A stretch of DNA of 64,000 nucleotides from Candidatus Altimarinota bacterium (GTDB taxonomy: Bacteria; Patescibacteriota; Gracilibacteria; BD1-5; UBA6164), in the NCBI GenBank assembly GCA_035905775.1, contig JAMIGJ010000044.1:2-64001 (forward strand), in the 5' to 3' direction. Each line of letters starts with the position of its first letter. Within the stretch, counting starts at the first letter, position 1. This document shows, in pieces, positions 1,651 to 59,958 of the stretch. The notes under the pieces were generated by a model. The model searched no databases and was not told the DNA's origin. It worked only from the letters and a program-made list of their open reading frames with translations. The position numbers and the translations under genes were made by a program.

Positions 1651-1699
1651 TATTATTCCACCTCTGAATCTCCTCCTTTTATTAAAAAGGAGGAGAGCA
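1651..1699 (-). repeat. PE-1 palindromic element copy
   Basis: On the minus strand it reads CTCCTCCTTTT-TAAT-AAAAGGAGGAG followed by ATTCAGAGGTGGAATA. Same architecture as the other PE-1 copies. Confidence 0.7.
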
Positions 1700-1721
1700 T
1701 CAAAAAATATTAATTCTTTTT

Positions 1722-1766
1722 CCCCCTTCCTTTTTTGTAAAAGGAAGGGTTGGGGATGGAATAAGT
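1722..1766 (+). repeat. PE-1 palindromic element copy (variant)
   Basis: CCCTTCCTTTT-TTGT-AAAAGGAAGGG followed by TTGGGGATGGAATAAG. Inverted relative to the copy at 1651-1699. Confidence 0.6.
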
Positions 1767-1786
1767 GGGATTAACCATATTACATT

Positions 1787-3604
1787 ATGTCAGAAATTAC
1801 TGTACAGAAAACTACGTTCCGTGACCTCGGTCTTTCGGAAAAGCTTCTTGAGGCCATTGAGAAAAAAGGATACCAATATCCAAGTGAAATCCAAGCTGGA
1901 GTGATACCACTTCTCTTAAACGGAGACAGAGATATCGTAGGACAAGCTCAAACGGGAACCGGGAAAACAGCAGCTTTTGGTCTGCCACTTTTAGATAGAC
2001 TCAATATGGATAAATCAGGAGTTCAAGCGATGATCCTCGCTCCAACTCGAGAGCTTGCGATCCAAGTAGCCAATGAAATCAAATCATTTGCCGATGCTCA
2101 AGTAAAAGTAACACTTCTCTACGGAGGACAAAATATCCGAGATGAACTTATGGAGCTTAAACGAGGTCCGCATATCGTGGTTGGGACTCCAGGTCGAGTC
2201 AAAGATCACCTTATTACCAAACGAACGCTCAATCTCTCGACGATCGATTATTTTATCCTCGATGAAGCAGATGAGATGCTTAATATTGGGTTTCGAGAAG
2301 AAATCGAAGAAATCCTGACGCATACTCCAGAAAATAAAAAAACACTGCTTTTTTCTGCAACGATGCCACGAGAAATTTTGGGTCTCGTAAAACAATATAT
2401 GCACGAGTATGATACCGTTGCGATTCAATCAAAAACGACGATTTCAGATCGTATCACTCAAATCTACTATGAAGTGGCTCCACGAAATAAATTTGAAGCT
2501 CTTTCGCGAGTGATTGATATGACCGAAGATTTTTATGGAATCGTATTTTGTAAGACCAAGATGGATGTAGATGAAGTTGCTTCAAAACTTATCGGAAGAG
2601 GGATTAAGGCTGAAGCCATTCACGGAGATATCGAACAAAAAAATCGAGAAAAAGTACTTGCGAGATTTAAATCTCGCAAAATCTCAATTCTTGTCGCAAC
2701 CGATGTTGCGGCTCGAGGAATCGATGTAGAAGATCTCACTCACGTGGTAAACTACTCACTTCCAGATAATGCAGAAGTCTATACACACCGTATCGGTCGT
2801 ACCGCTCGTGCAGGGAAGACGGGAACAGCCATCAACTTCGTGTCTCGACTCGATACTCGAAAACTCTTTGGCATCGAAAGACTCTTGAAACAAAAAATGA
2901 CCCAAGGAAAAATCCCAGGAGCTCGTGAAGTAGTAGAACTTCAGAAAAAACGACTCGTAGGAAATATCGCAAATCTCATGAATGACGAAAAACTCCATGA
3001 ATACGAATCTATGGTTCAAAGTCTCCTTGAACTTGGGGATCCAAAAACCGTACTTGCTGCGATGCTCAAAAACGCTCATGCAGATAAATTTGATGAAGCA
3101 TCCTATAATATCATCACGGAGTCAGCACCTCTTGCTCCAACAGGAGAACAGCGTATTTTCATCGCTCGTGGAAAGCTCGATAATCTTGATCCAGGAAGTC
3201 TGATCCGATTCATCGAAAACGAAGTGGGGATGAAACTCGGTGATGTTGGTAAAATCGATGTTCTTGAAAAATTTTCTTATATGAATGTTCAAGCGAAAGA
3301 CGCAGAGCAAATTTTACATCATTTTAAAGAACTTAATCCACGTCAACCACTTGTAGTACAAGCGAAAGCTCGAACAGATGGAGGAGGATATGCAAGCAGT
3401 GGGGGAGGTTCACGTGGAGGACGAAGTGGAGGATCATCTGGATGATATTCTGGAGGGGGATTTAAAAAATCATACTCAGGAGGACGAGGAGATGGACTTG
3501 GATATTCTGGAGGAGGTTCAAATTCACGTTCAAGCGGAGCTCGAGGGAGTTCTCGTGGAGGTCGAGAATCTGCAGGAGGGAAAAGTTATGGATGGAAAAA
3601 GTAA
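1787..3604 (+). CDS. deaD: DEAD-box ATP-dependent RNA helicase with Gly/Ser/Arg-rich tail
   Basis: Carries Q motif, AQTGTGKT, DEAD, SAT and HRIGRTARAG. The frame reads through TGA at 3443-3445 into a GYSGGG/RGG tail and ends at TAA 3602-3604. Confidence 0.9.
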
Positions 3605-3610
3605 GAAATA

Positions 3611-3639
3611 AAAAAATCTCTGCCTTGCAGAGATTTTTT
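3611..3639 (+). terminator. Rho-independent terminator
   Basis: Stem ATCTCTG/CAGAGAT with a 5-nt loop, followed by a T-run, right after the deaD stop. Confidence 0.7.
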
Positions 3640-3710
3640 GTGCATGAAAAGAGTTTGCAAAAAATATAAAAACCTCTAATTTACTAAAAAGTATTTTGTA
3701 ATTTAAAATT

Positions 3711-3992
3711 ATGCTTGAGCTTCTCCAACTCATGTGACAAAAACAATCTCTAGTTATATATGCGCTTTTTCTTATCCTTATCGTGTTACAGTATTATGTT
3801 TCACTGCAGCCTCAAGGATATTTTTTGTGAAAAATACGTAAGTATATCCCAAAAAACTATCGTCAGAGATTTGTGCAACCTGAAATGGAGATAAAAGCAC
3901 GAGTTTCATTTCAAAGATTTGTGCTTTTATGTATAATTGCACTCGTTATATTTCTCATCTTACAAATAGCAGGATTATATTTTTTATCATAA
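3711..3992 (+). CDS. small hypothetical membrane protein (93 aa)
   Basis: ATG to TAA in code 25 with 2 in-frame TGA. Two hydrophobic segments. Ends 4 nt before the next ATG. Confidence 0.4.
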
Positions 3993-3996
3993 TTTT

Positions 3997-5829
3997 ATGA
4001 ACCAAACACTCTTTCTTGAAAATATTTCAAAAATTCATGAACTTTTTAACGCAAATGAAGCGCATCTCAATGGACTTGCTGAAGGAATTCAAAAAGAGGG
4101 ATATCAAAGAGAGATACTAGATAGCTTTCTTGATGAGTTGAGGCTTGAAAAAAATAGTGATACACGCTATGTAGCCTATGCACGAATTGCAGGAAAAAAA
4201 TTTGAACCTCTCGATATCTACCTCGAAAAAATTGGAAAATCTCGTGAAGAGCGAGATATCTATTTTGAGAAATCCTATATTTTTGTGAGAAAATATTATG
4301 AAAATATGCAGGAAACTCTGCTTCAAAAAATACAGGAGCAAAAACTGCTCCCAGAGTTCTATATGACGATATTTGAGTATACACATAAGCTTGGAAAACT
4401 CTATTCTGAATTATTTTTGCAGTGGAATAGAAAACTTCTTTTTGAGCAAAATCGTGAACTCGAAGCTCGCTTTGAGGGAAATCAGGATGCAATTATCATG
4501 TTTCTCCAAGAAAATGGACTCTTTGATACATGACACCGTGGAGATATGGCAGACAGGAGTTATTCACTGCTAGAGAAAGCAGGAAACGAATATATTTCTC
4601 GAAGCTACTGTGAAGTATTTCCCACAGAAGTTCAAACGATTGTGAAAAAATACGAAGATTTTATACAAGCTCTAGATCTGCTCGAAGACGAAGTATTTGG
4701 GAGAAAACGAGAATATATTAACTATTTTACAGCAATTCAAACTGCATGGAAGGAAAAAGATATAAACGAACTCGTAGAAAAATGGTCTCAAGTGGATATT
4801 GCGTGGATGGCTATAGATACTCCCGTACAACCAGGGCATCCGATAGAATACTATGAAGATAAATATCGTCGAGCAGTTTCCATAGAGTTTGACCTCCGGC
4901 TGACTGATCCAAGTCTCTTTGAATCGACCGTTGCAAAAAATATCGAACATATGTATGAAGCGATGTACGATGAAATCGGTCGAGAAAATTTTCCTGAAAG
5001 CTATCACTACAGTCTCAATAATCAAAAAAAAGTACAGCTCTATATCGGAGCTCCAGTTCTTGCTTATGGATCATTTTTGTGTGGAAGCTATAGCGCGCAA
5101 GTCGTTCCAAACGATGATGAGGTGAGTAAAATCCATGGAAAAAAGATTTTTGCCTTTCCAAAATATGTACGAGAAAGCCAAAAAGTAGCTCCAAAAATGG
5201 CACTTGATGCCAAGATGATAGATGCAGAGATCTTAGAAAAATATGATGCGTTTTTGCAAGGTCCAGAAGAGAGATACTACGAAATCTATGATATCGAAAC
5301 GATTGGGCACGAATATGGGCATACCCTTTGGCTTGCTCCAGGAGCAGAGATTCGCATGGGAGAACAAGGACTTTTTAAAAATATAGAAGAGTTTAAAGCA
5401 ACGGCAGGAGGACTCGTCGCATATTTTCTCGCAGGTGGAAATGAGCTTTTGGATGAAGATGTAGTGGTAACGCATCTCATGCGCAGTATGCGGATGATGC
5501 GATACCGAGAAGTAGAGGATATTCTCCCATACTATTGTGAGTGCCTCATACATCTCCATATATTTTTTATGTCAGGGATGATAGACTATCACTTTGGAAA
5601 AGTAAAACTCCATTATAATGAAAAAACCTACGCAACATTCAAAGAACTCTATACTTCTATCTATACCCAACAAATATTTACCTATCTCAATCAGATGGAA
5701 GCAGGGAATTTTCTTTTTGAATTTGTAGTACGGGAAAACGGAGTATTTCTCCCAAAAGAGGAAAAAGTCAGAAAATTTGTAGAAGAGTATTATGAAAATT
5801 ATAAGAGGATAGGGAATGAAGTGTTGTAG
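3997..5829 (+). CDS. hypothetical protein with HExxH zinc-metallopeptidase motif
   Basis: Track ORFs 3997-4533 and 4546-5829 share one frame and are separated only by TGA 4531-4533. Contains HEYGH (IGHEYGHTLW). 610 aa. Confidence 0.75.
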
Positions 5830-5842
5830 AAAAGTTTTGTAA

Positions 5843-5871
5843 GGAACGAATATTTTCGTTCCCATTTTTTT
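5843..5871 (+). terminator. Rho-independent terminator
   Basis: Stem GGAACGAA/TTCGTTCC with loop TATT, then a T-run. Confidence 0.7.
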
Positions 5872-5983
5872 AGAGATTTTCAGTACTTCTTGTATCCATC
5901 TTTGTTTTCTTTGTATTTCATATTTCTTGAAAAATGAAAAAAACTCTCTTTACTTCTGCATATATTTTCATACTATAAAACGT

Positions 5984-8269: not shown

Positions 8270-8350
8270 AAACTAAAAATGAATTGTTTCGTAAATTGTA
8301 TTTTTATTTCTTTTATGTTACTATTTTTATATACAAATTAACTAAAAGAT

Positions 8351-9151: not shown

Positions 9152-9168
9152 ATTATTAGTACGAATTC

Positions 9169-9870
9169 ATGAAAAAAATATTATTTCTCATACCTCCCAG
9201 CGAAGGAAAAACTTCAGGATGAGAGCTCTGAAATGAAACTCTCAACTTTCATTTTGAAAAACCAACAAAAATAATAGAGCAAGCAAACGAAAAAGATCTC
9301 AAATGCAAGGGAAAACGTTTTGAGGAAGCGCAGGAACTCAATACTTTATGTAGTTCTCCTCTCCTGCAAGGGAGAGGAGATTCAGAGGTGAGGGCTGCGA
9401 TTGCTCGCTATAATGGAGTGATGTATAGCGCAATTGATTACGACGCAATGACTTTGGATGCGCAACATATTTTTGATAGGCATTTTTTGATATGTTCTGG
9501 GATGTATGGACTTGTGTGACCACAAGACGCAATAGCAAACTATAAACTTCCGATAGAGACGAAGTGACTTTCGCATTTTTGGAAAGAAAAAATCACTCAA
9601 ACACTCAATGAGAGTAAGTTTAATATCATCGTAGATGTACTTCCAGGAAGCTATAAAAAGATGATTAACTGGAAAAAACTCCATAAAAAAGTCATAGTGG
9701 TAGATTTTTTTGAAATGAAAGATGGAAAGAAGAAAAAAATGACGCATGGAGTAAAAGCCGTGAAAGGGAAATGGATTAAAAAACTCTGTGAAAAAGATTT
9801 CACAGAGTTTGAAAACATGATTCTTGAAAAAATATCACAAGGGGAAACTAGGCTTGAGGTACTTCAATAA
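9169..9870 (+). CDS. yaaA: YaaA-like peroxide stress protein (UPF0246/DUF328)
   Basis: Motifs LIPPSEGK, RYNGVMYSAID, ICSGMYGLVG(TGA)PQD, YKLP, FWKEKIT and THGVKAVKG. 4 in-frame TGA, TAA stop. Confidence 0.75.
9348..9394 (+). repeat. PE-1 palindromic element copy inside yaaA coding sequence
   Basis: CTCCTCTCC-TGCA-AGGGAGAGGAG followed by ATTCAGAGGTGAGG. Translated in-frame as CSSPLLQGRGDSEVR. Confidence 0.65.
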
Positions 9871-13376: not shown

Positions 13377-14384
13377 TTATTTTTCTATTCGTAAAAGTTC
13401 CCCCGTCAAGACAAGACGATTGAGCGTTGTTCCAATGGGCCAGCAAGTCATGAGAGATATTTGCGCTTTTCCTGCTTCGACATTATTTTTTAAAACAGAG
13501 ACATCACCCGGTCGTATTACATTTTTTGTTTGTATTTTATAGATATATTTTTCTTGGCCATAATATACGATAACTTCATCATCAAACGATACTTTATCAA
13601 GAAGTGCAAATACATCGTTATATTCTCACTCAAGCCATGGAAAGTTTGATGAGTGACCAAATATAAATGAATTTCCGACTTCACCAGGTTTTGCAGATCC
13701 AGGATATCGTACCACTCCGTTTTCAAGTTCTTTCATGAAAATATCATTGAGTTCATCCACTCCTTGCACATTTGGGTGAGTGATATCCACGAGTGGTATA
13801 TTTTTTCCTATTTTTGGAATGACAATACGATTTTCATAGGGAGTGATTTCTATATCAAGAGCCACATCATCATTTTTTGCTACGAGTGCAGCGATAGAGT
13901 GTTTTTCTCCTCCAGAAAGTACAGATCAAGATGCTTCTTCTGAGAGTTTTCCAAATGTCTGAGCCTGAACTCTTTCTTGTTTTCCTTCTCCTACATTGGC
14001 AGCAGCTACTGACTCGATGAGTGAATTTTTCGTTTGTTCTAGTTCTCCAGCGTATATGACGCTTTTTGCAATATTCCAGTAGGCAGAATAATTAGAAACA
14101 AGTAAAAGAACTCAAAAAATAATAGCCGAAGTAGAAAAATACTTTATCAGAAATATGAGAGTTGAAAGCATTCATTTTTTTTTCGTTTTGACTTCTTGAG
14201 TTGTTTGTATGCTTTCAAAGGCATCTCACATATTTTCTCAAGCCAAAATATCAATATTGCCTGCTTCTTTCTCTTCTCTCTCTTCAGATTTTTCGGTCAA
14301 TACGTCATTTTTTCCCTCTAAAAAAGGTATTTTTTGTATTTCTTGGGCATCAAGCGCTGCAAGAATATCATCTTGGTATTGCAT
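13377..14384 (-). CDS. sortase-family transpeptidase
   Basis: Motifs PGEVGNSFIFGHS, ISLMTCWP and NRLVLTG, with a TM anchor LSTLIFLIKYF. Start is uncertain: in-frame ATGs at 14435, 14384, 14231 and 14171. Confidence 0.7.
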
Positions 14385-14528
14385 AGAGTATATTTTTATT
14401 TGTATTTTTGTTTTGGTACTTCTAGAGTAACACATATTTTTTTCTCCTGCAAAGAAAAGAACTTGATTTCCTCATATTTTTGGGTACTATCACTTCTAAT
14501 ACATTTACCGCATAGAAAAACCCTTCCC

Positions 14529-14981: not shown

Positions 14982-15052
14982 CCTTCACCTAAGCTTTCCC
15001 AAGATAGCCCACATACAATTTTTCACCCTCAAGGTGTAGGGGAGAAATGGGG
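14982..15052 (-). repeat. PE-1-related palindromic element (divergent variant)
   Basis: The minus strand reads CTCCCCTACACCTTGAGGGTGAAAAATTGTATGTGGG. It resembles the copy at 27088-27145. Confidence 0.35.
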
Positions 15053-17109: not shown

Positions 17110-17183
17110 TGGCTGGGATGGAGGGGATCGAACCCCCGATGCCGGATTCAGAGTCCGGAGCCTTACCACTTGGCGACATCCCA
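17110..17183 (-). tRNA. tRNA-Gln (anticodon CUG)
   Basis: Cloverleaf with acceptor TGGGATG/CATCCCA, anticodon loop CTCTGAA, T-loop GGTTCGATCC and an encoded CCA. Confidence 0.9.
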
Positions 17184-17236
17184 AAAAATAAACTCTCACT
17201 TGAATTCTCTTCCGTGAGAAGGGCAAGATGCTAGCA

Positions 17237-17284
17237 TGTAGCTTCTTGCTCCTTTCTTCAAGAGGAAAGATTCAGGAAAGAGTT
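17237..17284 (+). repeat. PE-1 palindromic element copy
   Basis: TGTAGCTTCTTGCTCCTTTCTTCAAGAGGAAAG followed by ATTCAGGAAAGAG. Lies between tRNA-Gln and the rplL stop. Confidence 0.65.
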
Positions 17285-17291
17285 ATTCAAA

Positions 17292-17669
17292 CTACTTGAT
17301 TTCAACAGTTGCTCCAGCTTCTTCAAGTTTTGCCTTGATTTCTTCAGCTTCAGCTCGGTCAATACCTTCTTTTACAGCACCTCCTGCATCTACAAGAGCT
17401 TTTGCTTCACCAAGTCCAAGTCCAAGAAGTTCTTTTACTACCTTGATAACAGCAATTTTTTGTCCTCCTGCATTAGCAAGGATAACGTTTACTTTCGATG
17501 GTCCTTCATCTTCAGCAGCAGCTCCACCACCAGCAGCAACCATTACAGGAGCAGCAGCAGAAACTCCAAATTCTTCTTCCATAGCGTGTACGAGGTCGTT
17601 GAGTTCAACGATAGTAAGCTCTTTTACAAGCTCCATAATCTTAGCAGCGTTTTTTGATAATTCAGCCAT
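17292..17669 (-). CDS. rplL: 50S ribosomal protein L7/L12
   Basis: [19 protein letters not shown]..., an Ala/Gly hinge, and C-terminal domain [19 protein letters not shown]. No TGA. Confidence 0.95.
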
Positions 17670-17804
17670 TTTTGCAGAAATTATAAAAATAAAAATATAT
17701 TTCATCAAAGAAATTTTTTCCAATATCCCAAAACATTGGGATGTATCTCCACGAAATAGGGGATACTGAATACATCTCTTCTATGCTAGCTTTTGAGGCT
17801 AGTC

Positions 17805-25492: not shown

Positions 25493-26140
25493 CTACACTT
25501 CTATATTTTTTTTCCCAAAGGTACATTCCTCACGCATCGGACATACTCCACACTTTGGATTTCTTGCAGTACAGTGATAGCGACCGAAAAGTACGAGCGT
25601 ATTATGTAGGGGAGCGAGATCAGTAGCATCAAATATGGATGCTGCTTTTTTATCGGTCTCGAGGGGAGTTGTTGTCTTAACGATACCGATACGATTGAGG
25701 ACTCGGTGAACGTGCGTATCAACTCAGAGGTAGGGAGCTTTTTCTGTCACTGAGAGAAATACTTTTGCCGTTTTTATCCCCACTCCAGGAAGTTTTACGA
25801 GCTCCTCAATCGTTTTTGGAGGCTTACTGGCATGTTTTTCTATGAGTATCTCACAGGTTTTAAAGATATTTTTGGCTTTATTGTTAAAAAAACTCACTGA
25901 GTTGATGAAATCAGTTATTTCCTCAATTCAGAGCTTGACTCCATCTTCAGGAGTCTGTAAAAAACGAAAAAAGTTTCGATTGATAATATTTACCTGCTTA
26001 TCGGTTGCCTGAGCAGACATGAGGATCGCAATCAGGAGCTGAAACTCATTTTCATGATAGAGCTCCGTTTCAGCATTGGGAAACATTTCAAAGGCCGTTT
26101 TTTTCAGTGCTTCGATTTTTTGTTTTATTTTTGGAGTCAT
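25493..26140 (-). CDS. nth: endonuclease III
   Basis: HhH-GPD motif LVKLPGVGIKTA, VDTHVHRV, and the Fe-S motif CTARNPKCGVCPMREEC. 2 in-frame TGA, TAG stop. Confidence 0.9.
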
Positions 26141-26205
26141 AGAACTTGAGTGGAAAATATTGTATGTATTTTATAGAAAAAATGAGTAATATCTAGAAAA
26201 AATAA

Positions 26206-26256
26206 CTATTCCTATCTTAATTCTTTCCTTTTTGATAAAAGGAAAGAGGCTACAAA
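26206..26256 (-). repeat. PE-1 palindromic element copy
   Basis: The minus strand reads TGTAGCCTCTTTCCTTTT-ATCA-AAAAGGAAAGA followed by ATTAAGATAGGAATAG. Confidence 0.65.
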
Positions 26257-26258
26257 AT

Positions 26259-27059
26259 ATGTACACGCAAGATTTTTACATCACTAGGCCAGTGTGAAAT
26301 AATGCTTTTTCCTATCATGAAAGAAAAAATAAAAAGCTTTTTGTTCCTACAATCAAAAAGATAGAGAGTTTTGATGATATAAAGCTTTTGAATCTCAATA
26401 CAAAAAATATCACTTTTGAAGATTTTGATTTTGATGGAAAACTCCAGACCTGCTTTGGACTCAAGAATTTGTATGAACTCAGTTTCTCGTCACTACAGCC
26501 CTCATCACAATTCTTCTCCTGCCAGGAGAGAGAGCAAATACAAAAATCTATACCGATATATATTGTAGATAACCACAATCATGTGTTTTATTTTTGGTAT
26601 TTGGCTCGTGAGCGGGGAATCATCTCAGACGGAGCTCTCCTCTATCATGTTGATGAGCATGCAGATATGCGAGACCCCCAAGAGTATCTCATGAAGCCCG
26701 ATTCACAGGATTTAGAAAAGGTTTTTGAATATACCAATTTTTTCCTCAATGTTGGAAATTTTATCATTCCTGCAATGAAAGAATGACTGATTGGAGAAGT
26801 AGTACAAATTCGCAGTGAAGGGGCACTCAATGCATATCTAGAGTCCGGACTCCAAAGAGTCCGGACTCGGTGAGAGTCAATTATTCTCAACCTCGACCTT
26901 GATTTTTTTGAACCAGAACTCGACTACATCGAATTCGAACTCAAAAAGCAGGTGATACTCGATATCGCAGCTAAAGCAGACCTTATCACGATTTGCACGA
27001 GTCCATTTTTTATAGAACAGGAGAGAGCAATCAGAGTTTTGAAAGAAATATTCCAATAA
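26259..27059 (+). CDS. hypothetical protein, UPF0489-like (DNHNH motif)
   Basis: IYIVDNHNHVFYFW...HVDEHADM. ATG 26259 is joined through 3 TGA. Contains the twin palindrome at 26841-26868. Confidence 0.55.
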
Positions 27060-27060: not shown

Positions 27061-27089
27061 AAAATCTGAGAAATTTCTCAGATTTTTTT
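27061..27089 (+). terminator. Rho-independent terminator
   Basis: Stem ATCTGAGAAA/TTTCTCAGAT followed by a T-run. Confidence 0.7.
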
Positions 27090-27145
27090 GTAATTTCATC
27101 TCCCTTGATAAGGGGAAAATTGTGAGGGGTTTGAGATTGCGAGAA
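27088..27145 (+). repeat. PE-1-related palindromic element (variant)
   Basis: TCTCCCTTGATAAGGGGAAA followed by ATTGTGAGGGGTTTGAG. Confidence 0.45.
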
Positions 27146-35320: not shown

Positions 35321-35869
35321 ATGCAATCATTACTTTTCTCATTTTATATGGCTACAGAAGCCGAGGTAAAAGAGTTTTTTGATTCACAAATAAAGTGTAA
35401 ATATCAAGGGAGAGTAGAATGAGAGTATAGAAGCGAAATTCCAGCAGGGGAATGTTCAGGAAGATATAATTATTTTGTAAAAAATGATAAAGGATATGTA
35501 TTTCCTTGATGCACATACTTAAGTAATGAGTGTGTTTGAGATGGTATATGTTGAAACTCTAATCTGACAGAAATTTATTGGCCTGAACCTGAAATATGAG
35601 ATTATATATATTGAATTATGAATGATTCATGAAATATATTACGTATTTGAAAACATAATTATGATTCGGATAAAAGTATCCCTGACTGTAAAACTTATTC
35701 TAATATAGCGGATTTTTATTTTCATACATCAGTATCATCAGAGTCTAATGAATATTCAATTTACAGTGTAATTTTCATTTCTTCTGCAATATTTTTTTGC
35801 ATATTTTTTTTATCTTTCATATATAAAAAAATAAAATCCACTAAAAAAATAAGTAAATTTCTAAAATAA
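35321..35869 (+). CDS. Cys-rich protein with C-terminal TM anchor (182 aa)
   Basis: Only visible in code 25 (8 TGA). 7 Cys in the N-terminal two-thirds. C-terminal hydrophobic helix followed by a KK-rich tail. Confidence 0.55.
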
Positions 35870-36976
35870 ACTTAAATTATCTCCAAACTCCATTTCCTCT
35901 ACAAAACTCTCCTCATATCCTCTTACTTTGAGATTTTCAAAGACAGTAAAATCATGTGTTCCCGACTGGATTTGCGCGTAACACACAAGATAAGGGATTT
36001 CAAAACAATTGTAGGACTTCACTTCGGGAGGTCGAACTGAAAGTTCAAGATTATATTTTTTCTGAAAAGATTGTTGTATCATTGCTCGAGGATTTCCCGA
36101 GTTTTTTCCGATGAGAAAAGGGGAGAATGGAGAGTTCTGCGAAAAATACTTCTTATGATTTTCGTGTAAGATACATATGACGTAAGCTTCACGAGTAGGG
36201 AAGGAACTTTTTTTCTTTTCGACTACTGGTTCTAAACTTCCTTGAGTTTGGTAAAATTTTGATTCTTGGAAAGGATATGTTTCCCAGTCAATTCACGAAA
36301 CATTATTGAGAGAAATCGTTGCTCCATAATCCATGAGAGCATTATTGATATCGCGAGATATATTTGTAGCCCCTTTCTCTTTTCAAGGGAGAGGATTCAG
36401 GAGAGAGTTATGAAACTCTCTCATCTGCCCTAGTAACTCCTCTTTCTCCTCTTTCGTCAGCTTTTGAAACTTTGTTCCAAAATAATATCGGGAAAATATT
36501 TTTTCGAGATTGGTATCAAAACTGAGTGTTGGGATATCATAAGCAAAGGCTCGGATAGCTTCAGCCGTATAGGGTCAAACTCAGGGAAGAGTTCGGAGTT
36601 TTTCTGTTTCATGTGGAAAAACTCATCCAAAATCAGTAACTACTTTTTGTGCGGTTTTGAGCATATTACGAGCTCGACTATAGTATCCAAGTCATTTATA
36701 GTAGGGAAAGAAATCTTCATAGCTACACGCTGCGAGGTCTTCCAACGTTGGAAACGCTTTCAAAATAGTTTCAAAATAGAGTTTGACTCGTTCGACTTGT
36801 GTTTGCTGGAGCATCGTTTCTGCAAGCCATACTCGATATCCCAGAGTCTTTTCATCAAAATTATAATCCCTCCAAGGAAGATTTTTTCTTCCATTTTGAA
36901 GATACCATGTTTGTAACTCAGAAAATGGAAATTTTGGAAGCATATTTTGTATATTGCTTGAAAAGATATTTTTCAT
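35861..36976 (-). CDS. mutY: A/G-specific adenine glycosylase MutY lacking the Fe-S cluster cysteines
   Basis: Motifs LPWR, VWLAETMLQQTQV, G(TGA)LGYYSRARN, LPG(TGA)VG(TGA)PYTA and NNALMDYGA. 371 aa in one frame, all triplets checked. Confidence 0.85.
36364..36409 (+). repeat. PE-1 palindromic element copy inside mutY coding sequence
   Basis: TGTAGCCCCTTTCTCTTTTCAAGGGAGAGG followed by ATTCAGGAGAGAG. Read antisense, it encodes NSLLNPLPGKEKGATN. Confidence 0.7.
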
Positions 36977-46106: not shown

Positions 46107-46276
46107 GCTGTTGTGGGAGAACCAATATGGAAGCCTTTCTTCTTCATCTGATTCCCCCTGTTTTGAAAAATTTCCCGCGGCGCCAGATTATTTCACTGCG
46201 ACGAGTTTCATTTTCTCCTCCCTTCTTGTTAGAAGTAAAGTGAATATAATTATTTTTTAAATTTAGTCAAATATTT

Positions 46277-52350: not shown

Positions 52351-52396
52351 CTCGCACTTTTCCAAAAAATACATACAATCTTTGTATGTATTTTTT
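52351..52396 (+). terminator. TP cassette copy 1 (terminator hairpin with embedded promoter-like hexamers)
   Basis: CTCGCA, 17 nt, TACAAT, inside AAAAAATACATAC-AATCTTT-GTATGTATTTTTT. Begins 5 nt after the tag stop. Confidence 0.65.
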
Positions 52397-52407
52397 AGTT
52401 TTCCCCC

Positions 52408-53169
52408 ATGCTCTCCAAAGAAAAAATCAAGCAGATTCGTAAACTCCACGATAAAAAATGACGTACTGAGTCAGGACTTTTTTTGGTCGAAGGACGAAAG
52501 ATGATTCTCGAACTTTTCGCAAGTGATTGGAAAGAACACATCGAAGAACTCTATGTAAGTGAAAAACTGTTTGAAGAGATTGCAGCATCTTTCCCTTTCC
52601 AAGCAAAAGAAATCAAGAGAGAGGTATGTATTTGAGATACAGAAACTATCTCCAAAATCTCGACTCTGGAAAATAATAGCGATGGAGTTGCAATAGTGAG
52701 ACAACAATCTCCCGCAACAAGTACGGTATGACAATTCAGAGACTCGTGGACCCTCGTTCTCGATGGGATTCGCGACCCAGGAAATATGGGAACGATACTA
52801 CGAACCGCAAGTTGGTTTGGAATAGAGCATATCGTGTGTTCGCAGGACTCTGTAGAACTCTATAATCCCAAAGTCGTGAGTGCGACGATGGGAACTCTCT
52901 TTCACCTCAATATTTCCTCCCAAAATCTCGAGGATTTTTATAAAAATAATACCCTTCCCGTGTATGGAGCTGAGCTTGGATGAACTAATATTGGTGAAAT
53001 AGTATTTCCAAAATCAGGAGTTCTCGTCATGGGAAGCGAATCACATGGAATCTCAGAAATCTCACGAAAATATATGACGCAGGGAGTGTTGATTCCAAAA
53101 ATCGGATACGGTGAATCTCTCAATGTCGGGATTGCAACGGGGATTTTACTCTCGCATATTGTGAAATAA
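52408..53169 (+). CDS. SpoU/TrmH-family RNA 2'-O-methyltransferase
   Basis: Motifs LDGIRDPGNMGTILRTA, VMGSESHGI and ESLNVGIA. 5 in-frame TGA. Confidence 0.85.
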
Positions 53170-53498: not shown

Positions 53499-53546
53499 AT
53501 ATGTATAATATATCTACCTTAAAATTTAGAATAACAAATATAACTT

Positions 53547-53804: not shown

Positions 53805-53805
53805 T

Positions 53806-53847
53806 TTCACAAAATATAAAAAATACATACAATCTCGTATGTATTTT
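53806..53847 (+). terminator. TP cassette copy 2
   Basis: TTCACA, 16 nt, TACAAT, inside AAAAATACATAC-AATCTC-GTATGTATTTT. Confidence 0.6.
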
Positions 53848-53869
53848 ATTTTCCTCCAATCTAAAAAAA

Positions 53870-54781
53870 ATGCCAGCAATTCTACAAATACAAAACCTGA
53901 AAAAATCCTATAAAGGAAACGAAGTCCTGAAATGAGTCAATCTCGAAGTACAAGAAGGTGATTTTTTTGCACTTTTGGGGCATAATGGAGCCGGAAAATC
54001 TACCACGATTGGGATTATGACGAGCCTCGTGAATAAAGACTCAGGAACGGTAAAAATAGGGGGAGTCGATATCGATGAAAACTTTTCTCTGGCTAAAACC
54101 CATATTGGAGTCGTGCCACAAGAGTTCAATTTTGATATCTTTGCGAAAGTCGAGGATATCTGTCTCTTTGCAGCAGGATACTATGGAGTTTCAAGAGACG
54201 AAGCGAAAAGACGAGCTGAGTTCTATCTCACGAAACTTTGACTTTGGGAAAAACGTGAGAGTAAAGCAAAAGAACTCTCAGGAGGGATGAAACGAAGACT
54301 CATGATAGCGCGAGCGCTCATGCACGAACCAAAGATTCTCGTCCTCGATGAACCCACAGCAGGAGTCGATGTCGAGCTTCGAAAGACGATGTGGGAATTT
54401 ATCCGTGAACTCAATGAAAAGGGAGTGACGATTATCCTCACGACCCACTATCTCGAAGAAGTAGAGGAGCTCTGTCGCAATGTTGCGATTTTGTCCGGAG
54501 GACAAATCGTGCATCAGGGAAGCGTGAAAGAACTTCTTTCCACCCTGGATGAAGAGATATTTGTGTTGGATTTGAAAGATAAACTCCAAGAAATACCAAA
54601 ACGATTTGCAGAGTATAATCCAAAACTCGTAGATGCAAAAACGCTCGAACTGAGCGTAAAAGCAGCGGAAAGCATAAATGATATATTTTCTATCCTCACG
54701 GAAAAGTGAGTCCAGGTTCTCTCGATGCGAAACAAATCCAACAGACTCGAGCAACTCTTTTTAAAACTTGCGAAGAAGTAA
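53870..54781 (+). CDS. ABC-2 type transporter ATP-binding protein
   Basis: Motifs GHNGAGKST, LSGGMKRRL and LVLDEPTAGVD. 3 in-frame TGA. 303 aa. Confidence 0.9.
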
Positions 54782-54785
54782 TTTC

Positions 54786-54837
54786 TTATTCCTCATCTGA
54801 ATCTTCTCCTTTTACAAAAAAGGAGAAGGGCTACAAA
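54786..54837 (-). repeat. PE-1 palindromic element copy
   Basis: The minus strand reads TGTAGCCCTTCTCCTTTT-TTGT-AAAAGGAGAAG followed by ATTCAGATGAGGAATAAG. Confidence 0.7.
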
Positions 54838-54854
54838 CAAGAATCCTAAAAACA

Positions 54855-54905
54855 CTGCAGCCTCTTTCCTTTGAATTCAAAAGAAAGAATTCAAGATAGG
54901 AATTT
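54855..54905 (+). repeat. PE-1 palindromic element copy
   Basis: CTGCAGCCTCTTTCCTTTGAATTCAAAAGAAAGA followed by ATTCAAGATAGGAAT. Inverted partner of 54786-54837. Confidence 0.65.
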
Positions 54906-54925
54906 ATTTCCTAAAATATCCTCCC

Positions 54926-55681
54926 ATGACCGATCTCTATACTCTGATCTACAAAGAAGTTTTTCGCTTCTTGCGTGTTTGGAAGCAAACGCTTCTCCCA
55001 CCTGTTATCACAACCGTACTGTATCTTGCGATTTTCTGAAAATTTATCGGGGATAATATCTCTGTGGTTAAAGGACATAGCTACATCGATTTTATCTTTC
55101 CAGGGCTTCTCATGATGGCTGTGATTATGGCAAGTTACTCCAATACCTCAAGTAGTTTTTTTGGAGCAAAGTTTCAAAAATCGATCGAAGAGCTTTTTGT
55201 CTCTCCGATAGCTCACTGGAAGATCCTTGCGGGTTTTGCTATCTGAGCGGTACTTCGAGCTCTGATTGTTGCAGGATGCGTGTTTCTGGTAGGAGCTTTT
55301 ATGACGGATATTCATATCGAGCATTATGCTCTTGCTCTTGTATTTGTTTTTCTTACAGCTCTGCTTTTTGCATTTTTAGGACTCTATAACGCACTCTTTG
55401 CAAAAAGCTTTGATGATATATCGATTATTCCAACCTTTCTTATCACCCCGATGACCTATCTTTGAGGAGTGTTTTATCCGATTTCCGTACTCGGGCAACC
55501 ATGGCAATTTATTTCTCAGTTCAATCCCATTCTCTATATGATAAATGGTCTTCGCTATAGTTTTATCTCAGTTTCAGACATCAATATTTGGATTTCTCTC
55601 GGGATGCTTATTTTTTGTAATATTGCATTTATCATCGTTCTTTTGAGACTTCTCAAGAGGGGATATGGGATACGAAGTTAA
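54926..55681 (+). CDS. ABC-2 type transporter permease
   Basis: Four track fragments lie in one frame joined by TGA. 6 TM pattern. 251 aa. Confidence 0.85.
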
Positions 55682-55688
55682 AAAAATT

Positions 55689-55735
55689 CTCGCAAATTTT
55701 TAAAAAACACATACAATCTCTGTATGTATTTTTTT
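55689..55735 (+). terminator. TP cassette copy 3
   Basis: CTCGCA, 17 nt, TACAAT, inside AAAAAACACATAC-AATCTCT-GTATGTATTTTTTT. Confidence 0.65.
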
Positions 55736-55736
55736 A

Positions 55737-55834
55737 TTTGTAGCCCCTCGTCTTTCGTATGAAAGAACAAGTGAAGAAAGGAGTACTTGTACGACTATTC
55801 TGAAGTTGAACTGAAAGAGAGGATTCAGGTGAAG
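55737..55834 (+). repeat. PE-1-related composite element
   Basis: Starts TTGTAGCCCCTCGTCTTTCGTATGAAAGA and ends GAGAGGATTCAGGTGAAG. Longer than the other copies. Confidence 0.45.
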
Positions 55835-55851
55835 ATTATTATAAAAAGATT

Positions 55852-56478: not shown

Positions 56479-56542
56479 GACTCAGTTGAGTTTTGAGTTT
56501 TTTCTATAGAATCATTTTATATCATCTCATAAAATTATATAT

Positions 56543-57424
56543 ATGCGAAGCGAAGCGAATACCCGAAGGGTAAAAAAAATAACAAAATGCGTGATTCCAG
56601 CAGCAGGGATGGGAACGAGATTTCTTCCAGCAACCAAAGCACTTCCAAAAGAGATGTTTCCGATTGTGGATAAACCCGTGATGCAATATCTCGTCGAAGA
56701 AGCCATTGCAGCAGGGTGTACTGATATCATTATCATTACTGGACGTAGTAAACGTGCGATAGAGGATCATTTTGATAGTAATCCTGAGCTCGAAGCACGA
56801 CTGGATAGTTCTGGAAAATTTGAGTATCTTCAAAAAGTAAAATCTGCTTCAGGTGGAGCCAATATCGTCTATGTACGACAGCCCTATCCAAAAGGAGATG
56901 GTGATGCTATATTGCGAGCGAAAAACCTCATCGGAGATGAACCTTTTTTGGTGCTTTTCGGAGATGATATTATTGATAATCCTATAACAGCAGCAGAGCA
57001 ACTCGTAAAAAAATTCGAAGAAACAGGCAGAGTAGTGATAGCAACCATCGAAGTCCCAGCGAGTGAAGTAAAAAATTATGGAATCGTAGAAACAACAGAA
57101 AATCTTGAGGTTACTAAATTTCTTGAAAAGCCAAAGTCAGGTACAGATTCTCGTAGAGCAGCAATTGGGAAATATATCCTGACTCCAGATATATTTCGCT
57201 ATCTCGAAACGGCAGATTCGAGTGTTGGAGATGGAGAAATTCGTCTTGCAGATGCCTTTATTTCCATGCTTCAAAATGATAGTATTTTTGCACTCGATAC
57301 TCTCGGAACTCGCTACGATACAGGAAGTAAAATAGGATATCTCAAAGCCTGTATCGCATACGCTATGAAAGATGAAGAAGTAAAAGATGAGTTACAAGAG
57401 TTTTTAAAAAAAATCACTTACTAA
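56543..57424 (+). CDS. galU: UTP--glucose-1-phosphate uridylyltransferase
   Basis: Motifs VIPAAGMGTRFLPATKALPKEM, PKGDGDA and EKP. No TGA. 293 aa. Confidence 0.9.
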   Translation: MRSEANTRRVKKITKCVIPAAGMGTRFLPATKALPKEMFPIVDKPVMQYLVEEAIAAGCTDIIIITGRSKRAIEDHFDSNPELEARLDSSGKFEYLQKVKSASGGANIVYVRQPYPKGDGDAILRAKNLIGDEPFLVLFGDDIIDNPITAAEQLVKKFEETGRVVIATIEVPASEVKNYGIVETTENLEVTKFLEKPKSGTDSRRAAIGKYILTPDIFRYLETADSSVGDGEIRLADAFISMLQNDSIFALDTLGTRYDTGSKIGYLKACIAYAMKDEEVKDELQEFLKKITY

Positions 57425-57426
57425 TT

Positions 57427-57472
57427 CTCGCACTTCATTAAAAAATACATACAATACTGGTATGTATTTTTT
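57427..57472 (+). terminator. TP cassette copy 4
   Basis: CTCGCA, 17 nt, TACAAT, inside AAAAAATACATAC-AATACTG-GTATGTATTTTTT. Confidence 0.65.
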
Positions 57473-57484
57473 AATGCTATTTGT

Positions 57485-58723
57485 ATGCTTCAACTCCTTT
57501 CTGATCCCGATATCCCTTGCTTTTCGCAAATGCAAGATGTTATCACTTCACTTCTTGGGAAACGAGAAAATCTTGGTTTTATCGATGTCGATGAAACGGT
57601 TGATACTGCTGAGATTCATGAATATATTGCAAAGATTTGAGACCAATTTGATACTATGGTCGTACTCGGTATCGGTGGTTCTGCACTGGGGACGAGAGCT
57701 GTGTTTGAAACACTCAGAGGCAAGTACCACAATCAAAAGCAAGCAGTCAAAAAACTCTATATCCTCGATAATATCGATCCTGAAAGTATTACGGATTTGC
57801 AGGAGCAACTCGATCTTTCAAAAACACTTTTTTGCGTGATTTCCAAGTCTGGAACCACGGTGGAGATTCATGCACTCACAACGTATTTTATGAATCTCAC
57901 GAAATCTCGTGTAGACAAATGGAAAGAGCATTTTTGCTATGTGCTTGGAGAAAATTATTCAAAAAAAGCAGAAATACAGAAACATTTCCAGACCTTTTCT
58001 CTTGCAGATAATATTGGAGGAAGATTCTCGGTATTCACTCCCGTAGGACTTCTCCCACTTGCCTTCGCTGGAGTCGATATTGATGCCTTACTTGCTGGAG
58101 TACAACACGCAAAACAGAGATTTTTGTCTGAGGATATAGAGCAAAATACAGCTCTGAGACTTGCGTTCTTACAATACTATTTTTATGAAAAAGAGGGAAA
58201 AAATATTTGTGTGCTGTTTCCTTACTCGAGTCGTTTGGGGGGAATCGGAGCGTGGTATACGCAGCTTCTTTCTGAAAGCATCGGGAAAGACAGTATCGGG
58301 ATCACTCCTATCACCGCAGTCGGAGTGACCGACCAACACTCGGAGCTTCAGCTCTTTCAGGATGGTCCCAGAGATAAGTTTTTTATGAGTCTACAAATCG
58401 CAGAGCACATAAAAAATCCTCTCATCGATGCAGAAAATCACTTTGGTTTTGCTGAATTGCTTGAAATCGAGAGATATGGGACGCTCACTTCTCTCCAAAA
58501 CGACGAAGTCCCACTTGCAGCTCTCCAAATAGATGATATCTCAGAATCGTCACTTTCCGAGCTTCTCTACATGCTTGAGTTCCAGATTGCCTATCTTGGT
58601 GAACTTTTCGGGATTAATGCCTTTGATCAACCCGGAGTCGAGAAATCAAAAATTCTTACCAAGCAAAAACTCGCACAAGATTTTCCCAATCTTGATTTGG
58701 CTACGAAGTCTCAGGAGTTTTAA
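57485..58723 (+). CDS. pgi: glucose-6-phosphate isomerase (short form)
   Basis: Motifs VVLGIGGSALG, ISKSGTT, GGRFSV and DQPGVE. ATG 57485 is joined through one TGA. Confidence 0.85.
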
Positions 58724-58736
58724 ATTTCATCATTTC

Positions 58737-58782
58737 TTCGCATTTTTCTAAAAAATACATACAATACCTGTATGTATTTTTT
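58737..58782 (+). terminator. TP cassette copy 5
   Basis: TTCGCA, 17 nt, TACAAT, inside AAAAAATACATAC-AATACCT-GTATGTATTTTTT. Confidence 0.65.
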
Positions 58783-58791
58783 AGTTTTTCT

Positions 58792-59958
58792 ATGAAAAAA
58801 ATAGTTACGATTTGAGGAGGAAATGGACAATCCAATCTCCTGGATGCTATGCAACGATATTTCCCAAAAAAGAAATATCATATCTCTAGTATCGTCTCGA
58901 TGTCGGATGATGGTCGTACAACAGGGGAGTTGATGCGAAAGTTTCAGGAAGATCTGGGACTGCATCTCCCACCTCCAGGAGATCTCCGTAGATGTCTGTT
59001 TATGATGTCGAATTCAGAGCGAAAAGATGAGTTCGAGCAGTTTCTTGAGACGATTATAGAGCGAGATATCCAGATTTCAGAGCTCACGATTTGGGACTAT
59101 TTTAGGCTGGTAGGTGCTGATGAGACTTTTAAAAAGCATTTACAAAAAATGAAGTCTCTTTCCCTTTTCAAGGGAGAGAATTCAAGCGAGAGTTTCTTAA
59201 ATTTCACTCTCCCTCTCAGGTCTTCTATCAAGGGGCACAAAGTCGGAAATATCCTGATGGCAAATCTCTACTACAATCTAGAAAAAGATTATTATAAGAT
59301 GCTTGAGGTGATGCACGAGATACTCGAAGTTGAGGCAGATATTATCCCAGTTACGACGCAGCGAGCTTATATCCGCGCTGTTTTATGAAATGGGGAAGTG
59401 ATAGAAAGCCAAGATAGAATTTCCAATGTGGCTTCCTATACCGCAGGGATTGCAGATCTCGAACTCATGGAAGACTCAAAACATGCCTACCAACATAAAA
59501 ATGTATTCAAGGCAATAAAACAAGCTGACTACATCATCATCACTCCAGGGGATCTCTTTACCTCTATCATCTCCAACTTTGTGATTGGAGGAGTGAGTGA
59601 CGTGATTAAAAAATCCGATGCAAAAATCATCTATATTGGAAATTCGACTAATAAAGGAGGAGAAACACAATGACTGACACATCTGGATATCATTAATAAA
59701 ATCGAGAGATTTTTAGGACGCAAGATAGATATATTTATCTGTAATAACAAAAAACTTGAGCTCACTCTCGAAGAAAAACAAAGCTTTCAAAGTAATATCT
59801 CTGTAAAAGGAGGGGATTATCTCTATCTCTCAAAAGGGGAGAAAAAAGAGCTCGAAGCCCGTAAAGTAAAAGTCTTCGAAGCTCCTCTGCTTGATGCACA
59901 TACCTTCTATAAACATGATAAAAAAGCTCTCACCGAGCTTTTAGAAAAGATTTTGTAG
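58792..59958 (+). CDS. YvcK/CofD-family (UPF0052) protein
   Basis: Motifs IG(TGA)GGNGQSNLL, SMSDDGRTTG, PPGDLRRC and ITPGDLFTSI. 388 aa, TAG stop. Confidence 0.8.
59153..59193 (+). repeat. PE-1 palindromic element copy inside the YvcK-like coding sequence
   Basis: CTCTTTCCCTTTTCAAGGGAGAGA followed by ATTCAAGCGAGAG. About 85 percent identical to the mutY copy. Encodes KSLSLFKGENSSESF. Confidence 0.7.

Follow-up and report, generated by a model that had tools for sequence, protein, structure and literature searches.

Repeats of the BoxC type, also called PIT or TM_ECO, have been on record since the 1990s. In Escherichia coli MG1655, this class II purine-motif intrastrand triplex repeat is present in 23 copies, always intergenic; the copies occur in inverted pairs and in two types, form a triplex in vitro as judged by circular dichroism and nuclear magnetic resonance, and mark hypervariable loci, and transposases or integrases were "never found" near them (Holder et al. 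2015, PMC4666352; earlier BoxC work, as cited there, includes Bergler 1992 and Hoyne/Maher 2000). Another group of short palindromes, the GTAG repetitive extragenic palindromic (REP) sequences, is tied to RAYT transposases (Di Nocera 2013, PMC3733652; Bertels & Rainey 2011, PMC3116915), and two short Rickettsia palindromic elements (RPEs), RPE-4 and RPE-6, have been classed as CGTC REPs by Di Nocera et al. (PMC3733652). Here we examine PE-1, a repeat family noticed in 64,000 nt of contig JAMIGJ010000044.1 from a Candidatus Altimarinota bacterium (assembly GCA_035905775.1, positions 2 to 64,001 of the forward strand; "the window" denotes this whole stretch). With moderate confidence, we propose that PE-1 units are Gracilibacteria-wide structured repeats and derivatives, akin to MITEs (miniature inverted-repeat transposable elements), of an element encoding a DUF559 endonuclease, through which they would have been mobilised.

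PE-1 resembles BoxC in the order of its parts (pyrimidine arm, loop of 3–6 nt, purine arm, 3-nt loop and mirror strand of G, A and T), in its dozens of copies, inverted tandem pairs and two types, in strong presence/absence variation from one relative to another, and in that no transposase was found nearby. It differs in being A/T-rich, with 10–11 triads against 9 for TM_ECO, in its conserved TGTAGCC tag, in a second loop, TTC, that lies inside an ATTCA core, and in belonging to a code-25 lineage within the candidate phyla radiation (CPR), where copies are also found in-frame in genes; all TM_ECO copies, by contrast, are reported to be intergenic. The window copies do not match the published TM_ECO pattern, CCCTCNCCC N3-6 GGGNGAGGG N3 GGGNGAGGG (one reads CTTCTCCTTTT..AAAAGGAGAAG..GATGAGGAATA); G/C-rich copies beside DUF559 genes in other bacteria, including E. 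coli, do match it.

With REPs, the family shares a short palindrome, defined for REPs as 20–40 bp, that carries an unpaired GTAG-type tag at one end, frequent heterodimeric inverted dimers, a position near upstream stop codons, some in-frame genic copies, including copies in DNA-repair genes, and, in the logic of a REPtron, one small flanked enzyme gene. REPs, however, have no third strand, and the gene flanked by PE-1 encodes a PD-(D/E)XK protein of the DUF559 family and not an HUH Y1 transposase. The RPEs are longer, about 100–150 bp, and we know of no enzyme associated with them. Like PE-1, they are palindromic repeats found in-frame in the protein genes of a small-genome bacterium, to which they add surface peptide segments, but they lack the triplex architecture and have no sequence relationship to PE-1, whose pattern matched only metagenome-assembled genomes (MAGs) of Gracilibacteria type. 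The RPE affinity suggested in a preliminary description of this DNA is therefore withdrawn in favour of an intrastrand triplex motif of the BoxC/TM_ECO kind. The same description took in-frame insertion to be established for Rickettsia, to which REP-type cases already documented outside Rickettsia should be added (PMC3733652). The likeness to MITEs (for example Correia elements and those derived from insertion sequences) is that the gene-less unit would consist of both inverted end repeats of a longer element that carries a gene, and that copies are numerous and biased towards intergenic DNA; PE-1 differs from them in that neither a recognised transposase, of the DDE or any other kind, nor a target-site duplication was seen, and in having triplex motifs as termini. 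Finally, the open reading frames (ORFs) flanked by PE-1 are bona fide PF04480 members that match the DUF559/YcjD structure 3HRL, among the Vsr-fold nucleases; in the literature searched, no substrate is described for proteins of the large DUF559 family and none is tied to interspersed repeats.

Architecture and distribution of the PE-1 unit

The PE-1 unit is 55–60 nt long and consists, from 5' to 3', of TGTAGCC, a pyrimidine arm (Y11), a loop of 3–6 nt, a purine arm (R11), TTC, and a third strand (T11) drawn from G, A and T; an oligonucleotide example is CTTCTCCTTTTTTGTAAAAGGAGAAGATTCAGATGAGGAATA. In 239 copies from 22 Gracilibacteria genomes, the arms form a hairpin of 10–11 bp, with the pyrimidines in the 5' arm and the purines in the 3' arm. 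Watson-Crick pairs occupy 91% of the 2390 stem pair cells, and most positions exchange T-A for C-G; among the nine strong window copies alone, 7 of 10 pairs covary. Stem T.G wobbles (110) outnumber C.A mismatches (47), which points to the strand that reads TGTAGCC first as the one that folds. The 3-nt second loop lies within a near-invariant ATTCA, and the next 10–11 bases mirror the purine arm, with G opposite G and either A or T opposite A. Purine-motif triads (C-G*G, T-A*A and T-A*T) fit 2186 of 2297 positions (95%) in register, and the triad score is 10/10 in 158 copies. The mean number of triads is 9.15, compared with 6.68 when third strands are permuted among copies (maximum 6.90 in 200 trials) and 3.6–5.0 when the third-strand register is slid. 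Two unit types, G..ATTCAG and A..ATTCAA, show almost perfect linkage because both bases join in one triad. Across the 22 genomes the core is strongly conserved (ATTCA at 97–99%, pair C19-G34 at 98%), and the tag, which adjoins the stem, retains G8 in 200, T9 in 181, A10 in 209 and G11 in 215 copies.

By these features the unit can be classed as a class II purine-motif intrastrand triplex motif, with triplex folding predicted on single-stranded DNA. The hairpin of the preliminary description stands, and its supposed right flank is a third strand in mirror arrangement with the purine arm. Since purine-motif triplexes form in DNA and not in RNA (PMC4666352), the constraint on PE-1 most likely acts at the DNA level. 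Three other assignments were rejected. For a structured RNA, Rfam models recognise only four tRNAs in the window, and the covariation of the third strand follows the purine motif, which RNA does not form; for an intrinsic terminator, there is no T-tract 3' of the stem, and a separate hairpin family with A-tract, stem and T-tract exists; for a promoter or 5' leader, suggested by the several copies that point to gene starts, pairs are found after rplL as well as between genes that run in the same direction, and the types of gap used match the background.

That PE-1 is a real family of interspersed palindromic repeats, as first described, is confirmed. A covariance model (CM) was built from the nine window copies, which can be aligned across ~60 nt, and scanned over the entire window with filters off; it recovers these copies at 44–69 bits (E 1e-9 to 7e-17), with four weaker or split copies beyond them, of which one at 30.6 bits is newly found. 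Two IUPAC patterns gave 4 and 5 window matches and none in 100 dinucleotide shuffles. A triplex-motif finder that is agnostic to sequence gave eight window matches, seven of them PE-1 copies, and none in five shuffles. The eighth, at 14429–14461 on the minus strand (TTCTTTTCTTT-GCA-GGAGAAAAAAA..), lies in or near the gene at 13377–14435, has neither the TGTAGCC tag nor the ATTCA core, scores 8/11 triads, and probably represents chance or a separate family.

When one genome per species was scanned for an exact 47-bit pattern, across 185,579 species, all 107 matching stretches fell in 21 Gracilibacteria-type MAGs, some of which carry the label Peribacteria or Patescibacteria; the stretches were many to a genome. 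Locations were tabulated in 884 kb, comprising the window and loci from genomes sampled as 8-kb stretches. Although ORFs cover 88% of this sequence, 78% of the 239 copies lie outside them. The three gap types (co-directional, divergent and convergent) contain copies in the same proportions as the background, with both orientations represented; of the solo copies in co-directional gaps, 34 are antisense and 16 sense, and the distance from the end of the third strand to the upstream stop codon has a median of ~17 nt. Pairs are head-to-head, with the TGTAGCC ends facing and gaps of -1 to 23 nt, in 48 cases and tail-to-tail in two, and 42 of 47 head-to-head pairs are heterodimers of type 1 and type 2. 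The outer ends run into longer inverted repeats in several genomes, and one genome has three near-identical whole doublets, spacer included. We looked for genome-specific subfamilies and discarded the idea, as identity within genomes (0.70) is barely higher than between them (0.65).

The window has 37.5% G+C, and its ORFs of at least 150 aa total 30,394 aa when only TAA and TAG are stops, against 9,475 aa under table 11. TGA codons stand at conserved glycines: the first G of the CofD GGGxG motif (58813–58815, codon 8 of YvcK) and the G of MutY GLGYY and LPGVG (mutY, 35861–36976). Because of these glycine positions, and because the coding density requires TGA as a sense codon, the genome is assigned code 25 (UGA=Gly) and not code 4, and all window genes were translated with table 25. 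Close protein relatives of the window are all labelled Candidatus Gracilibacteria; many database orthologues are mistranslated, with W at UGA=Gly sites.

DUF559 nuclease genes between the units

The most interesting and least expected result is the association with DUF559. A screen for ORFs bracketed by two PE-1 copies in the sampled loci returned a recurring protein of 120–130 aa that belongs to Pfam DUF559 (PF04480; 79–95 bits for a cut-off of 20.6, E 1e-22 to 1e-27). Eight of 10 DUF559 genes have a PE-1 unit within ~100 nt on both sides, as against 16 of 828 ORFs of at least 80 aa (Fisher p=1e-13). In the usual layout, [unit -] gene [unit +], the gene fills the spacer of a head-to-head pair, giving a unit of ~0.5 kb, and genes in this position are present in at least nine genomes. 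The stop codon is in or beside the unit; often the gene's 3' end (..KIAASF, ..CSPSP*) runs into the downstream unit and the stop falls in the hairpin loop. Gene-less pairs have the same two arms as the units around DUF559 genes and, in HOU_bin.0025, the same loops. A single genome can hold degraded and multiple DUF559 units, with diverged paralogues.

Since these loci had been preselected for the repeat, the association was re-ascertained by protein alone, on the contigs of five DUF559 homologues from four gene lineages. Three of the four lineages have the same bracketed layout: in L114/L116 the gene lies between the two strongest matches in 20 kb (63 and 53 bits), with a weaker 26-bit match just downstream, and the gene is bracketed likewise in L118 and L120. 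A fixed arm order, with type 2 upstream and type 1 downstream, was considered and abandoned; it holds in L059, L064 and L108 and fails in L114, L120 and L041.

The catalytic-type residues D61, E72, D74 and H78 are invariant in 22 DUF559 sequences that are 40–96% identical. The closest solved structure by sequence is PDB 3HRL (E 2.7e-7), and the family is placed together with Vsr and I-Bth0305I, a homing endonuclease (PDB 3R3P). Two observations concern divergent or decayed forms. On L123 (1087–1145 and 1530–1560) and L122, a more diverged Gracilibacteria DUF559 gene is bracketed by inverted copies of another pyrimidine/purine hairpin, GGCTTCCTTTTGAAAAGGAAGC, which has no TGTAGCC or ATTCA parts and hints that nuclease and repeat may co-diverge. 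On L013 (1528–1977), a degraded DUF559 unit with both repeats apparently lies within an 855-codon frame (416–2983, minus strand), which would mean either that a whole unit is tolerated in-frame or that the ORF call is spurious.

The association extends beyond the lineage. When JGI metagenomes were scanned with the DUF559 alignment, 80 loci of G+C content 0.27–0.63 were recovered, and the PE-1 model, trained on AT-rich copies, already matches beside many of these genes. The motifs there are G/C-rich and BoxC-like, for example CCCCTCTCC-TTTT-AGGAGAGGGG-TTA-GGGGTGAGG, without the TGTAGCC tag, and mostly arranged as [-] gene [+]. According to the agnostic finder, a triplex motif lies within 200 nt of the gene at 34 of the 80 loci (43%, for a chance rate per gene of ~3%). 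Motifs number 68 in the 35.7 kb near gene ends and 18 in 259 kb elsewhere, a 27-fold enrichment that is partly an effect of comparing intergenic with coding DNA.

In E. coli MG1655 the only DUF559 gene is ycjD. Its product ends in ..RRSPSP*, and its TGA stop codon lies in the loop of a CCCTCTCCC hairpin (CACCCTCTCCC-TGAAAG-AGCGAGGGGG); a copy of the TM_ECO pattern follows 167 nt downstream on the same strand. In this region (L204, MG1655 1351040–1351406), the last ~40 nt of ycjD (GAGACGGTGCTGGAGAATATTC..CTGAACCG) recur as a duplicate downstream of the gene, before the BoxC copy. The gene is single-copy and present in 3378 of 5426 complete E. coli genomes (62%; missing from 38%), and BoxC-like places number from 1 to 27 per genome. 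A clean empty ycjD site was not obtained, as only the fabI end of the query matched in E. coli genomes that lack the gene, and the PE-1 covariance model, owing to composition, finds no E. coli BoxC.

Window copies, empty sites and in-frame insertions

The PE-1 copies of the window are as follows, with model score, stem pairs and triads.

1647..1708, minus strand: unit A, type 1, ..GATTCAGAGG..; CM 67 bits, stem 11/11, triads 11/11; left arm of head-to-head pair 1, in the gap between the fur-like and DEAD-box helicase genes.
1711..1771, plus strand: unit B, second loop TTG, third strand GGGATGGAATA; CM 44 bits, stem and triads 11/11; right arm of pair 1, ending 16 nt 5' of the helicase ATG at 1787.
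9343..9402, plus strand: unit G, sense and in-frame in yaaA (9169–9870, plus strand), peptide LCSSPLLQGRGDSEVR; CM 49 bits, stem and triads 11/11.
17183..17234, minus strand: unit C', type 2, degenerate, left arm of pair 2; CM 17 bits, stem 7/9, triads 7/9.
17231..17292, plus strand: unit C, type 1, right arm of pair 2; CM 57.9 bits, stem 9/11, triads 9/11; it extends to the rplL stop codon (rplL 17292–17723, minus strand).
26199..26260, minus strand: unit D, solo, ATTAAG variant; CM 62.9 bits, stem 11/11, triads 11/11; in the divergent gap from nth (25493–26140, minus strand) to the following plus-strand gene.
27083..27138, plus strand: probable degenerate solo unit, weak; CM 15.2 bits, E 0.21, stem 7/9, triads 8/9.
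36359..36417, plus strand: unit I, type 1, antisense and in-frame in mutY (35861–36976, minus strand), peptide NSLLNPLPGKEKGATN; CM 64.1 bits, stem 10/11, triads 10/11; the G of LPGK is an in-frame TGA.
52575..52633, plus strand: unit K, possible old copy in a TrmH/SpoU-like gene (52408–53169, plus strand), peptide IAASFPFQAKEIKREVC; CM 30.6 bits, E 8e-6, stem 8/10, triads 6/10.
54780..54841, minus strand: unit E, type 1, left arm of pair 3; CM 69.1 bits, stem 11/11, triads 11/11; starts directly 3' of the ABC ATPase stop codon (end 54781).
54783..54925, no strand: segment of 143 nt with pair 3, missing in the syntenic relative L001.
54850..54911, plus strand: unit F, type 2, right arm of pair 3; CM 56.3 bits, stem 9/11, triads 10/11; 5' of the ABC-2 permease ATG at 54926.
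55733..55845, plus strand: unit J, split and degenerate; CM 18.2 (55733–55792) and 12.7 bits; a TTTGTAGCCCC tag with short hairpin, a gap of ~50 nt, then ..GAGAGGATTCAGGTGAAGATTAT.
59144..59202, plus strand: unit H, type 2, sense and in-frame in a YvcK/CofD-like gene (58792–59958, plus strand), peptide KSLSLFKGENSSESF; CM 58.6 bits, stem 10, triads 9; tag TAG changed to AAG.

Every sequence listed in the preliminary description is present where it was placed, and both of its inverted pairs (there 1651/1722 and 54786/54855; here 1647/1711 and 54780/54850) are borne out, with a third added at 17183/17231. The end of unit C' (..GAGAGTTTATTTTTT, 17183–17184) touches the 5' end of tRNA-Gln (17110–17183, minus strand), and pair 2 therefore spans the entire spacer between rplL and tRNA-Gln. 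The divergent members of that description fared unevenly: 27088–27145 is a weak probable copy and 55737–55834 a split, degenerate one, while 14982–15052 and ~46130–46250 are non-members, because they give no model match at E<=10 and have poor stem and triad scores.

Filled and empty versions of a site can be compared directly in the ABC transporter operon. In L001, a syntenic relative at ~82% nucleotide identity, the ATPase stop codon and the permease ATG abut where the window has the 143 nt with pair 3 (by blastn, L001 1–739 corresponds to window 54044–54782 and L001 740–1497 to window 54926–55683). The relative has none of the three copies found in 9 kb of synteny and no match above 18 bits in 18 kb.

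The three copies described inside yaaA, the YvcK gene and mutY do remain in-frame under code 25, with the peptides exactly as first quoted, and the identity of the mutY and YvcK copies, given as about 85%, measures 38/45 (84%). Insertion rather than convergence, as had been argued from the mutY and YvcK copies, is supported by orthologue comparison for these two. For YvcK, the two closest orthologues (P0001 and P0002, 88–89% identity) lack KSLSLFKGENSSES, a third (P0003, 82%) has KSLPLFHGEDSGED and a 27.6-bit copy in its DNA, and others carry different peptides resembling a translated pyrimidine or purine arm at the same spot. In an AF2 model of P0003 (pLDDT 81.7, pTM 0.84), the only segment below 50 is residues 127–132, in the element-coded peptide. 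For MutY, the orthologue in L028, at 67% identity, is short of 12+3 aa exactly where the element lies. The yaaA copy is ambiguous: the nearest orthologues lack most of the segment, while two that are 50% identical have a near-identical CSSPLPQGRGDSEVR, and the segment shares 83–87% nucleotide identity with theirs, against ~58% for the rest of the gene, so that the likeness is one of DNA as well as of peptide. It may reflect gene conversion, insertion more than once, or an old insertion subject to constraint at the DNA level. The TrmH segment is unconfirmed as an insertion because it shows no length excess over PDB 2i6d, solved homologues having counterparts of similar length, and because its triad score is poor.

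In other genomes ~25 more copies lie in ORFs, in both orientations and in recurrent frames (..LNPLP..KGAT, ..RGYK, ..VASL..ERIQDR, LCS..). Copies avoid the sense frame in which the tag would be read as TAG, and the YvcK copy has AAG in its place. An in-frame TGA is present in 12 of 26 in-ORF copies, including the window mutY copy (CCT TGA AAA = P G K); such copies stay open because UGA is reassigned. A triplex-forming repeat thus lies in-frame in mutY, yvcK and yaaA, extending to the CPR a phenomenon of the RPE kind, and an altered code that removes a stop otherwise fatal to many insertions interacts with the tolerance of mobile DNA.

Several further observations concern these proteins. The YaaA orthologue P0193 and the YvcK orthologues P0008, P0020, P0029 and P0037 have two or three element-like inserts, or much longer ones, in the same loop, which suggests nested or repeated insertion at hot spots. 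Besides the 10-aa element segment, Gracilibacteria YvcK (window 58792–59958) has ~55 extra residues relative to solved YvcK structures, at residues 78–143 between two conserved blocks, where the AF2 model places helices. Both the window MutY (35861–36976, minus strand) and its 67%-identical orthologue (L028 712–1743) lack the four cysteines of the [4Fe-4S] cluster (..YGATISLNNVSGIDWETYP..), and alignments of MutY to PDB entries end before the cluster loop region.

Origin and spread of the repeats

If the units derive from a nuclease-bearing element, as we favour, the autonomous form would be the ~0.5 kb [unit]-DUF559-[unit], which encodes only the endonuclease, and from it gene-less head-to-head heterodimers (105–130 nt) and solo units would have arisen. 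We infer that the units are recognised or cut by the nuclease, which would act on their folded ends and help to copy them to new sites; nicking followed by repair-mediated copying, or true homing, are possible routes for a lone nuclease. Most copies would land in intergenic DNA just 3' of stop codons and now and then inside genes, where a copy could persist only if it keeps the frame, introduces no stops and falls in a loop that tolerates it. Arms made wholly of pyrimidines or of purines, combined with TGA=Gly, may make such persistence unusually likely.

Several points weigh against this account. We know of no lone PD-(D/E)XK nuclease that acts as a transposase. No target-site duplication is evident at the clean intergenic filled/empty pair in the ABC operon or at the YvcK site, the repeated copies compared for this purpose lie inside larger duplications, and no defined insertion target was found. 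There is no DUF559 gene in the window, and co-occurrence of nuclease and repeat was sampled in 8-kb stretches per genome. L114 and L120 have type 2 on both sides of the gene, and L123 has a different hairpin. In the metagenomes 46 of the 80 DUF559 genes have no motif under the criteria used, and the enrichment near the others owes part of its size to the intergenic effect mentioned above; in E. coli, BoxC is present in 5420 of 5426 genomes and ycjD in only 62%. The yaaA copy, finally, could be old and kept by selection or gene conversion and not mark a recent event.

Two rivals deserve most attention. In the first, which we consider unlikely, PE-1 is a structural or regulatory element that serves the host (a replication or transcription pause site, insulator, terminator or mRNA stabiliser) that selection has kept and transposition has not spread, and DUF559 is a triplex-resolving housekeeping nuclease whose gene is flanked by the motif for autoregulation. 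The strong conservation of the core over 22 genomes, the placement ~17 nt past stop codons, the elevated nucleotide identity of the yaaA copy and the single-copy state of ycjD in E. coli speak for such a role, and TM_ECO is reported both to block polymerases and to form a triplex in vitro (PMC4666352). A host function is harder to reconcile with the relative at 82% nucleotide identity that lacks all three copies, with the use of every gap type at background proportions in both orientations, with copies within unrelated ORFs in several frames, and with degraded and multiple DUF559 units in one genome. Further points against it are the absence of a U-tract, the presence of the genome's own terminator-like hairpins, and the restriction of purine-motif triplexes to DNA.

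In the second, which strikes us as improbable, the repeats spread by other means and DUF559 would be a free-standing homing endonuclease gene aimed at the middle of inverted pairs already in place, parasitic on them and so coming to lie between their arms. The clade of DUF559 and Vsr does include I-Bth0305I, the gene is invariably placed between the two units of a head-to-head pair and may point either way relative to the locus, and several diverged paralogues occur in one genome. Homing of this kind leaves the gene-less pairs at dozens of unrelated sites unexplained, and the fusion of the 3' end of the gene to the unit (..KIAASF, ..CSPSP*, stop in the loop) recurs both in E. coli and between lineages of only 50–60% identity, a pattern suggestive of an ancient integral unit and not of repeated homing.

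A REP or REPIN-type family moved by a RAYT (HUH tyrosine) transposase encoded elsewhere, with DUF559 as a passenger or favoured neighbour, has a slim chance. It would account for the unpaired GTAG-containing tag (TGTAGCC) beside a short palindrome and for the inverted dimers, heterodimers, position after stop codons and intragenic copies, all as in GTAG REPs (PMC3733652). PE-1 was not filed under this system because no RAYT-like gene was found and because the G/C-rich relatives beside DUF559 genes in other bacteria do not have the tag; the search, by regular expression and by tblastn with TnpA/RayT queries, covered 919 kb of repeat-enriched sampled sequence for IS200/RAYT-like ORFs (Y1/HUH, PF01797) and is a weak test. 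REPs also lack a covarying third strand, and the gene found between the arms, in at least nine genomes, is DUF559. Barely credible is the notion that the in-gene segments are ordinary loops or a selected peptide motif that resemble the intergenic repeat by convergence or low complexity: the YvcK and YaaA loops do vary in length across orthologues and the TrmH segment has its counterparts in solved homologues, but in-gene copies score 49–64 bits against the whole-unit model with 9–11 of 11 triads, occur sense and antisense in different frames with unrelated peptides, are missing from the nearest orthologues and do not arise in shuffles, so that this explanation is contradicted for mutY, YvcK and yaaA and possible only for TrmH.

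Derivation of PE-1 from a DUF559-encoding element invites a wider and more tentative proposal, which we put forward as a possibility and would not yet assert: that BoxC-type triplex repeats across bacteria, from the AT-rich Gracilibacteria family through the G/C-rich copies in many phyla to E. coli BoxC/TM_ECO, are the folded terminal repeats and MITE-like remnants of unrecognised minimal mobile or homing elements whose sole gene is a DUF559 nuclease that recognises the triplex or hairpin, and which in UGA=Gly lineages also remodel housekeeping proteins in-frame. The link, seen in Gracilibacteria, in metagenomic bacteria and partly at E. coli ycjD, would give DUF559 and BoxC each a testable role and points to an origin for long-unexplained repeats. 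It is mentioned neither in PMC4666352 nor in the other papers found, and the literature searched, which was incomplete, held no description of these repeats from Gracilibacteria.

The window also contains a second, unrelated repeat family, at 52364–52396, 53818–53847, 55702–55735, 57440–57472 and 58750–58782. Each copy consists of an A-run, an ACATAC stem, a loop, a GTATGT stem and a T-run, usually with a TTCTCGCA box upstream; the copies lie between consecutive plus-strand genes and are 85–90% conserved in L001. The arrangement resembles that of an intrinsic terminator acting in both directions and preceded by a box. The octamer TTCTCGCA itself occurs at 12 sites, for ~0.74 expected per strand:

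1025, 5426, 18830, 49243, 52349, 55687, 57425 and 63601, plus strand: eight TTCTCGCA sites.
27138, 31852, 48982 and 63966, minus strand: four TTCTCGCA sites.

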